From assembly GCA_045650705.1 (NCBI GenBank), contig JAZRRK010000055.1:13842-77841 (forward strand): a stretch of DNA of 64,000 nt, in the 5' to 3' direction. The translations under genes and the position numbers were made by a program. The notes under the pieces were generated by a model, which had not been told where the DNA came from, searched no databases, and worked only from the letters and a program-made list of their open reading frames with translations. Numbering within the stretch: position 1 is the first letter of the stretch; each line of letters begins with the position of its first letter. Source of the DNA: Clostridia bacterium. GTDB lineage: Bacteria; Bacillota; Clostridia; TANB77; CAG-508. Below, piece after piece: positions 39,892 to 40,037 of the stretch.

Positions 39892-40037
39892 AGAACCCTC
39901 CGTCACCCTACGGGTGCCACCTCCCTTGTTAAAGGAGGTTTGTAGCGGCGACCATTGGTCGTCCATTCTTCAAAGACACTAATCGCATGTAAGCCCCTTT
40001 AATAAGGGGGCTGTCAGCGAAGCTGACTGGGGGTTCT
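39892..40037 (+). repeat. Composite multi-hairpin element B, long copy (contains a family A hairpin at 39941-39965)
   Basis: AGAACCC...GGGTTCT closing helix around 5 local hairpins; the 3' 97 nt align with 50734-50827. Confidence 0.75.

Follow-up and report, generated by a model that had tools for sequence, protein, structure and literature searches.

Two intergenic spacers in a 64,000-nucleotide (nt) stretch of a Clostridia bacterium genome (assembly GCA_045650705.1, contig JAZRRK010000055.1; the whole stretch is referred to as the window) contain a multi-hairpin element, termed element B. One copy lies between adk and map and the other between ftsW and murG. Both are copies of a palindromic DNA repeat that is dispersed in low-GC, uncultured gut Clostridia. 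They are probably non-autonomous, and the arms of the repeat would be the ends of an element carrying a DUF559 nuclease gene. The arms are repeated, their hairpins covary, and they are absent from the corresponding spacers of relatives. They are also arranged in inverted pairs and are physically associated with DUF559 genes. Loci in other genomes are given by handle (L006 and so on) where they need to be told apart.

The two copies in the window

An original prediction made from the window alone described two copies of element B that align end to end, and re-alignment of 39941-40037 with 50734-50827 bears this out. Common to both are TTGTAG(C/G)GGCGACCATTGGTCGTCC, a variable linker, AGCCCCTTTAA(T/C)AAGGGGGCT, a third hairpin, and TGGGGGTTCT. 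The linker does differ between the copies, but it contains a conserved head motif, TTCTaCgAAG. Hairpin 3 is GTCAGC-GAA-GCTGAC in the adk-map copy and GTCACC-GTTA-GGTGAC in the ftsW-murG copy, so that the predicted G-C to C-G double change is seen with pairing preserved in both; the loops differ as well. Within the window the 25-nt core is matched twice, where 0.00 matches would be expected, and the folding z-scores relative to shuffled sequences are -6.2 for the adk-map locus and -4.6 for the ftsW-murG locus. The G+C content of the window is about 27%.

The adk-map copy has a 48-nt 5' extension (39892-39939), in which CACCC-TAC-GGGTG and CCTCC..GGAGG are present as predicted, but not as two separate extra hairpins. 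The extension is an imperfect reverse complement of 39990-40037, with AGAACCCTCC-GTCACCCTACGGGTGCC-ACCTCCCTTGTTAAAGGAGGT on the 5' side corresponding to AGAACCCCCA-GTCAGCTTCGCTGAC-AGCCCCCTTATTAAAGGGGCT in the reverse complement of the 3' side. The adk-map copy can therefore be described as two inverted arms, one A-type and one G-type (these subtypes are defined below), placed head to head and enclosing a hairpin of a separate family, family A. The proposed closing of the domain by pairing of AGAACCC with the 3' GGGTTCT is possible. By the same comparison the ftsW-murG copy is a single G-type arm 3' of a family-A hairpin. The repeated unit is an arm of about 70 nt, rather than the element as first drawn. 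A covariance model built from foreign arms only recovers exactly three arms from the window, at 71, 66 and 61 bits, with the next match at 14 bits. All of the window copies are within operons and have the same direction as transcription.

Anatomy and covariation of the arm

Alignment of 119 distinct arms gives the order head (cTaCgAAG..CAAGAAA), hairpin 2 (AGCCCCTTTAACAAGGGGGCT), hairpin 3 (G[stem-loop-stem]AC) and tail (TGGGGGTTCT(TAAAA)). Hairpin 2 is a polypyrimidine/polypurine hairpin. There are two sister subtypes, the G-type with AGCC..GGCT / GTC.. / TGGGGG and the A-type with ACCT..AGGT / GGCAG.. / GGAGGG. The hairpin-2 differences between them are G-C to C-G and C-G to U-A exchanges that keep the pairs. 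The stems of hairpin 3 vary widely (GTCGC, GCACGC, GTCCAC, GTCAGC, GTCACC, GCCGC, GCAGTGC and others) and are always paired, with loops that are mostly GNA or GNNA. A possible hairpin 1 in the head (CTTGCGAAGC..GCAAG) was dropped, having no RNAalifold support. Integron attC sites, CRISPR and terminators were rejected on anatomy, there being no R'/R'' cores, no arrays and no T-run.

Covariation was computed on the 119 arms with a structure specified by the author. Because the search pattern prescribed the hairpin-2 core and the tail, their invariance is uninformative. Paired cells make up 92.5% of the total against 81.1% in shuffles, the observed value being reached in 0 of 500 shuffles. Double-change cells number 185, where shuffles give 57, and the slid controls have covariation scores of 0.01-0.07 compared with 0.221 for the arms. 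Compensatory changes are found in seven of the eight hairpin-3 pairs and in two hairpin-2 pairs. The predicted covariation is thereby confirmed, very strongly and for both hairpins. It fits hairpins in single-stranded DNA just as well as hairpins in RNA.

Copy number and presence in relatives

When one genome per species was scanned for the exact pattern, arms were found at no fewer than 109 loci. About 90 of the matches listed are in metagenome-assembled genomes (MAGs) of low-GC uncultured Clostridia from mouse, rabbit and other guts. No arm matched in a phage collection. The one arm in a plasmid collection is on the Vescimonas fastidiosa chromid, with no DUF559 gene nearby, and adjoins family-A-like hairpins (L205 1560-1970). 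Among the arms for which gene context was determined, all but about eight are between open reading frames (ORFs). In four gut metagenomes, contig depth over 40005-40051 is 4,000-25,000, against roughly 5-900 over the flanking genes.

The same spacer in related genomes generally lacks the element. One metagenome contig joins 39876 to 40044, and so represents a relative without the whole element. A scan with the Map protein identified 80 relative loci (68-83% identity), none of which has an arm at the adk-map spacer. This spacer is 38 nt or less in 58 of the 69 relatives in which the upstream gene end could be called automatically. Among the few other insertions there are different GTAGGGG-plus-hairpin units in L113 and L149. 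L173 and L120 have palindromic insertions that are unrelated to the arm, one a palindrome of about 90 nt with perfect arms (GGATTTAGGTACAGGGATTTGGGGACGGTCCTTAAAATCCCTTC...) and the other in a spacer of 187 nt with GC-rich hairpins. In light of these unrelated insertions the adk-map spacer appears to be a recurrent landing site.

Pair architecture and the DUF559 gene

The arrangement of the arms was counted in a set of 160. There are 20 tail-to-tail A/G pairs with a spacer of 13-16 nt, 19 head-to-head G/G units of about 215 nt (100-129 nt between heads), and eight tail-to-tail G/G pairs that are 160-388 nt apart. About 60 arms are single and there are almost no direct tandems. AGAACCCCC and GGGGGTTCT form the two ends of the units of about 215 nt. 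The head-to-head A/G pair of the window, with 59 nt between arms, has one near counterpart, in L059 (15 nt), which has no family-A hairpin. Around one of the 215-nt units, the two MAGs L046 (4900-5000) and L038 (5300-5350) are 97-98% identical to the right, and on the left the similarity ends exactly 33 nt from the unit, at the junction of TTGACTGTTATTGTTCAGACATAATTCACTTTT and AAGAACCCCC. Other arms also have the motif GTTAYTGTTCAGAC upstream of them. The loss of similarity may mark a rearrangement breakpoint or the boundary of a longer element.

All eight of the long tail-to-tail G/G pairs enclose a 123-aa ORF or its remnants. This ORF is a DUF559 protein (Pfam PF04480, E 5e-29, 100.9 bits against a cut-off of 20.6). 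The nearest solved structure is 3hrl (E 4e-13), and DUF559 belongs to the PD-(D/E)xK clade. Its score against NCBIfam PRK09767 is 68 bits, below the cut-off of 218, and it is therefore not an equivalog of E. coli YcjD. The full-length unit consists of an arm, a ribosome-binding site, the DUF559 gene and an inverted arm, and is about 0.5-0.6 kb. L006, L075, L058 and L023 have a complete or almost complete gene and share one layout: TAGAAAGGAG and the start codon come after the tail GGGTTCT, and the TAA stop codon either overlaps the (T)AAGAACCCCC of the inverted arm or lies immediately against it. In L081 and L017 the arms are retained around internally deleted remnants of the gene.

The eight DUF559 loci are in seven gene neighbourhoods, L006 and L075 being the same ftsY locus; the others include an ABC transporter, a P-type ATPase, rny/ymdB and rpsJ-rplC-rplD. 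Several copies of the gene are truncated or interrupted by stop codons, and in one MAG the gene is present three times or more. With its varied neighbourhoods, decayed copies and multiple copies in one MAG, this looks like a selfish, decaying gene. Nearly all of the closest homologues in the protein database come from contigs 0.5-4 kb long, which is what assemblies broken by the repeats would give. Many of these are annotated with N-terminal extensions that read through the 5' arm, giving "proteins" of 134-160 aa.

DUF559 loci selected by protein similarity

Seven loci were chosen solely on DUF559 protein similarity (50-76% identity), with 2-3 kb taken at each. Arm-like hairpins border the gene at all seven. 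Other comparable hairpins are almost absent from this sequence, with only the high-GC L193 having several unrelated ones. The arm covariance model matches six of the seven loci: L190 (E ~1e-19), L202 (9e-7), L203 (2e-6), L197 from Nostoc (3e-4), L201 (5e-4) and L200 (6e-4). It matches none of 31 control loci (~190 kb), which come from other lineages than some of the DUF559 loci, and nothing in a 10-kb E. coli ycjD locus. L202, from a lineage of 44% G+C, again has A-like as well as G-like arms and pairs joined tail to tail, and its DUF559 gene is between two direct copies of one arm.

Hairpins are also found beside DUF559 genes in more distant bacteria. On plasmid pDEIPR03 of Deinococcus proteolyticus (L206 1115-1565), near-perfect inverted repeats of 52 nt, containing CCTCCCCC-GCAAG-GGGGGAGG, are positioned 18 nt upstream and 3 nt downstream of the gene. 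In Picosynechococcus PCC 7002 the gene is among TCCCCC..GGGGGA hairpins. In Neisseria gonorrhoeae it adjoins CTCTCTCCC-TGT-GGGAGAGAG and CCCTCCCC..GGGGAGGG repeats, with a 281-nt tandem array containing two such hairpins located 3' of the gene. The only DUF559 gene of E. coli is ycjD, present in 62% of 5,426 genomes. In strain K-12 (L204, NC_000913.3 1351050-1351830) it ends in CACCCTCTCCCTGAAAGAGCGAGGGGG; beyond it lie first a duplicated remnant of the ycjD 3' end and then a GC-rich palindrome. Across the same set of genomes the palindrome is present at 16 places per genome (median). The 3' end of ycjD was itself considered as a multi-copy repeat and rejected, since it occurs at only 1-2 places per genome and in 62% of genomes. 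The palindrome resembles, and may be, BoxC. BoxC is listed as 56 bp with 32 copies (PMC2267715).

Arms or similar hairpins thus border DUF559 genes chosen by protein sequence alone in Firmicutes, Nostoc, Deinococcus, Picosynechococcus, Neisseria and E. coli. It is possible, if still somewhat doubtful, that small DUF559 nucleases are the cognate enzymes of pan-bacterial polypyrimidine/polypurine hairpin repeats, to which the Clostridia arms, the Nostoc, Picosynechococcus, Deinococcus and Neisseria hairpins and the BoxC-like repeat of E. coli would all belong.

Family-A hairpins

Family-A hairpins, consisting of (T)GTAGGGG and a GC-rich stem-loop, give nine strand-matches at six sites in the window against 0.01 expected; the motif is near-palindromic, and at some sites both strands therefore match. 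Five of the six sites are in spacers of co-directional genes, three of these inside a ribosomal-protein operon, and the site at 25311 comes after a hairpin that precedes the next gene. The GTAG tag, by which one REP superfamily is defined, is at 39942-39945 and 50735-50738 in the two hairpins next to arms. The ftsW-murG spacer of L079 has a family-A hairpin (TGTACGGACGCCCTTTGGGCGTCCGT) and no arm, which indicates that family A and the arm are separable modules. Variants of family A with compensatory stem changes are found in the same spacers in L079, L113 and L149. Family-A-like hairpins are also beside arms in L073, where the arm follows at a near-constant 49-53 nt, and in L190, at a similarly short distance. 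The arms may prefer family A as a neighbour or as a target.

Interpretation

The arms would be the cis-acting ends of a small selfish element, the full form of which is the arm, ribosome-binding site, DUF559 gene and inverted arm. The DUF559 protein, as a Vsr-like PD-(D/E)xK nuclease, would recognise the hairpins, either extruded or in single-stranded DNA, and nicking at the hairpins would allow the element to be copied or retained. In the adk-map spacer of the window the arms would have been placed around a pre-existing family-A hairpin. DUF559 and the arms would then be analogous to the REP-associated tyrosine transposases (RAYTs) and their repetitive extragenic palindromic (REP) sequences and paired REP hairpins (REPINs). 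DUF559 would act on the arms and drive their spread or maintenance, as RAYTs act on REP sequences and REPINs (PMC2817692, PMC3116915).

Several observations weigh against this interpretation. There is no DUF559 gene in the 64-kb window. Simple deletion within the G/G DUF559 units does not account for the short A/G pairs; this origin was considered for them and rejected, as their spacers contain no gene-end remnant. Pairwise comparisons of homologous loci produced no clean empty and filled site with a target-site duplication, because the intergenic DNA is too diverged for clean junctions. The TTTTA and TAAAA flanks of the arm units are compatible with a TA duplication, but since they are palindromic any target-site duplication is ambiguous, and the window copy has A-runs in their place. 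The lineages from which the control loci were drawn count on the same side. To our knowledge, no activity is known for DUF559 proteins of 120 aa, and neither transposase nor homing activity has been demonstrated for the domain. DUF559 could also be a passenger that homes into arms mobilised by another enzyme.

The passenger role belongs to the strongest of the alternatives, rather unlikely in itself, in which the arms are repeats like REP sequences and bacterial interspersed mosaic elements (BIMEs) that are moved by a RAYT/IS200-type Y1 enzyme or a DDE enzyme, and DUF559 is a homing-type nuclease landing in them. Both G-type arms of the window adjoin GTAG-tagged, REP-like hairpins, as do arms in L073, L190 and Vescimonas, and GTAG-tagged palindromes are the RAYT-associated class of REP (PMC3733652, PMC2817692). 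The gene between direct arm copies in L202 looks like an integration into an arm. There is no tail-to-tail G/G pair with a short spacer, all eight holding DUF559 or its remnants. The direct duplication in L202 and the lack of unoccupied short G/G pairs thus fit homing of DUF559 into arms. The flanks would fit the TA duplication of miniature inverted-repeat transposable elements (MITEs) of the IS630 type. Against such an enzyme, no Y1 or DDE transposase was seen beside arms in about 750 kb of arm-bearing loci inspected without a profile search, and DDE elements are not expected to show hairpin covariation in their terminal repeats. Related hairpins are found at the borders of DUF559 in each of the five phyla examined, which is explained more easily by co-evolution of enzyme and substrate.

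It is improbable that the arms are a structured RNA with hairpins under selection in the RNA, whether as a small RNA or as a cis element by which polycistronic mRNAs are stabilised or processed. The original prediction had left the choice between a structured RNA and a composite mobile repeat. The second is supported by the dispersal, inverted pairs, variable presence and composite make-up of the repeat; the first is not favoured. Covariation of both hairpins is as an RNA would show it. In addition, the + strand folds better than the - strand at both loci (-67 against -63.2 kcal/mol for adk-map, -47.9 against -37.5 kcal/mol for ftsW-murG), and the window copies are co-oriented with transcription inside operons. 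Arms are present in undirected metatranscriptome contigs, which show no more than their occurrence in RNA libraries. No RNA run of this organism was found, the best runs containing 5-6% of the words. Single arms are oriented with co-directional flanking genes by 2:1 (26 against 13), but the A/G pairs are not (5 against 7), and arms are found in convergent and divergent spacers as well. A.C mispairs are as common as G.U (6 against 3, in the one hairpin-3 pair with both counted). The weak orientation bias and the frequency of A.C argue against a strand-specific RNA and fit hairpins in DNA or on either strand. Inverted pairing places an arm on both strands, relatives have the same spacer without the element, no single locus conserves it, and metagenome copy numbers are in the thousands. 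The U.G pair in hairpin 2 would also suit an RNA, but the search pattern itself imposed it and arms of other lineages lack it; on these same grounds its reading as a T.G mismatch serving as a Vsr-type substrate is not supported. No Rfam 15 family matched at gathering score across the window, and permissive searching of 39800-40150 returned chance matches (E 8-9).

It is very improbable that the arms are static DNA hairpins selected by the host, such as protein-binding or supercoiling sites, whose spread was confined to vertical descent and local duplication, without mobility, as would suit the lack of a target-site duplication or clean insertion junction, because the same subtypes are at unrelated loci of many species, presence at the same spacer differs between related genomes, and the nuclease version is in seven neighbourhoods among eight loci.

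Relation to known repeats

This kind of element is well known, as REP/BIME, MITE and BOX, while the arm family itself appears in neither Rfam nor the literature searched. REP, REPIN and BIME sequences (PMC2817692, PMC3116915, PMC3479197) are likewise short GC-rich extragenic hairpins in high copy, in which compensatory changes maintain the hairpins. The two sister subtypes in alternating orientation with characteristic spacings are reminiscent of the Y and Z REPs of BIMEs, and the small nuclease gene between two inverted repeats is reminiscent of REP and RAYT. The REP unit is a single palindrome of 20-40 nt, whereas the arm is two hairpins with a conserved head and tail, of about 70 nt. REP palindromes have a conserved GTAG (or CGTC) tetranucleotide at one end (PMC3733652); hairpins 2 and 3 of the arm are without such a foot tag, and it is the neighbouring family-A hairpin that has GTAG. 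RAYTs are HUH Y1 transposases, whereas the gene between inverted arms is DUF559, a Vsr-like PD-(D/E)xK protein. The host of the arms is also different, being a low-GC Firmicute; the survey of GTAG/CGTC REPs does not mention Firmicutes.

The MITEs and modular repeats, including Correia/NEMIS, RUP, pneumococcal BOX and ERIC (see also PMC2267715, PMC3184786), are similar in being intergenic units of 100-220 nt with long terminal inverted repeats, in their modular make-up, strain-variable presence and AT-rich flanks, and in their insertion between operon genes with co-transcription. Such terminal inverted repeats are found in the adk-map copy, 39892-39939 against 39990-40037. No known insertion-sequence end was matched, though no IS database could be consulted. 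A longer element with the same ends, arm-DUF559-inverted arm, is present at eight loci, DUF559 not being a known transposase. The arms differ in having no known DDE transposase partner and in that the terminal repeats are themselves pairs of covarying hairpins. They differ also in that fixed tail-to-tail pairs with 13-16 nt between them are as common as head-to-head units.

The BoxC-like repeat of E. coli is a dispersed GC-rich palindrome of polypyrimidine/polypurine composition, with a copy 3' of ycjD, but its sequence is different, no hairpin 3 is recognised in it, and the arm covariance model does not match it. DUF559 is in the same PD-(D/E)xK clade as Vsr and I-Bth0305I (PDB 3r3p), the latter a proven mobile-element nuclease (PMC3424549). 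I-Bth0305I is larger, sits in a phage group I intron, and is not known to have hairpin repeats. The literature search found no paper linking DUF559 to repeats or mobility, nor the arm family.

Other repeats of the window

The coordinates of the arms and family-A hairpins are given in Table 1. A second intergenic repeat, (A/T)ATAGTGAATAGTGAA(T/G)AGT, is found at 33214-33284, 34634-34667, 37103-37173 and 42252-42285. Two of its copies (33216-33284 and 37105-37173, 75% identical) are followed by a small AT-rich hairpin and the ribosome-binding site of the ribosomal-protein gene that comes next. Upstream of ftsY, the spacer contains an imperfect palindrome of about 135 nt (4548-4685, CCGCCCAATCTCGTCGGGGCTATATATG ... 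CATATATAAGCCCCTGCGTTGGGC) that folds at -58.6 kcal/mol (z -6.2) and has no Rfam match. L006 and L075 have an arm-DUF559-arm unit at the position of this palindrome.

Table 1. Positions of arms, their parts and family-A hairpins in the window
Feature	Position	Strand	Sequence or remark
adk-map spacer	adk end 39880, map start 40065
Left arm, covariance model match	39888-39965	-	61 bits
Left-arm tail (A-type)	39892-39901	-	AGAACCCTCC, reverse complement of GGAGGGTTCT
Left-arm hairpin 3	39902-39918	-	GTCACCC-TAC-GGGTGCC; in arm orientation GGCACCC-GTA-GGGTGAC
Left-arm hairpin 2	39919-39939	-	ACCTCCCTTGTTAAAGGAGGT, A-type variant of AGCCCC..GGGGGCT
Family-A hairpin, adk-map	39940-39964	+	TTGTAGCGGCGACCATTGGTCGTCC, GTAG-tagged, REP-like, module separate from the arm
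Right-arm head	39965-39991	+	ATTCTTCAAAGAC...; family consensus cTaCgAAG..CAAGAAA
Right-arm hairpin 2 (G-type)	39992-40012	+	AGCCCCTTTAATAAGGGGGCT, 9 pairs including one U.G/T.G
Right-arm hairpin 3	40013-40027	+	GTCAGC-GAA-GCTGAC
Right-arm tail	40028-40037	+	TGGGGGTTCT
ftsW-murG spacer	50731-50856
Family-A hairpin, ftsW-murG	50733-50757	+	TTGTAGGGGCGACCATTGGTCGTCC
Single G-type arm, ftsW-murG	50758-50827	+	covariance model match 50755-50831 (+), 71 bits
Head of ftsW-murG arm	50758-50780	+	GTTCTACGAAG..
Hairpin 2 of ftsW-murG arm	50781-50801	+
Hairpin 3 of ftsW-murG arm	50802-50817	+	GTCACC-GTTA-GGTGAC
Tail of ftsW-murG arm	50818-50827	+
Family-A hairpin	25311-25335	+
Family-A hairpin	30810-30833	+
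Family-A hairpin	33186-33210	+
Family-A hairpin	33684-33708	+

Significance

Palindromic repeats that are dispersed in a genome influence how operons are organised, how stable mRNAs are and how the genome rearranges, and they cause metagenome assemblies to break. The arm family is among the most abundant sequences mapped to this locus in gut metagenomes, and knowing the arms prevents mis-annotation, such as ORF calls that run through them. If DUF559 is the partner enzyme, there would be a testable role for an orphan domain that is found across bacteria. If the link to the nuclease holds, the REP/RAYT paradigm would gain an independent counterpart with a different nuclease fold, and there would be a hint as to the nature of the long-unexplained BoxC-type repeats of E. 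coli. Should the pairing of small DUF559 nucleases with hairpin repeats be true across bacteria, it would represent a second, RAYT-independent system of nuclease and REP-like repeat, and would give a function to the widespread domain DUF559.

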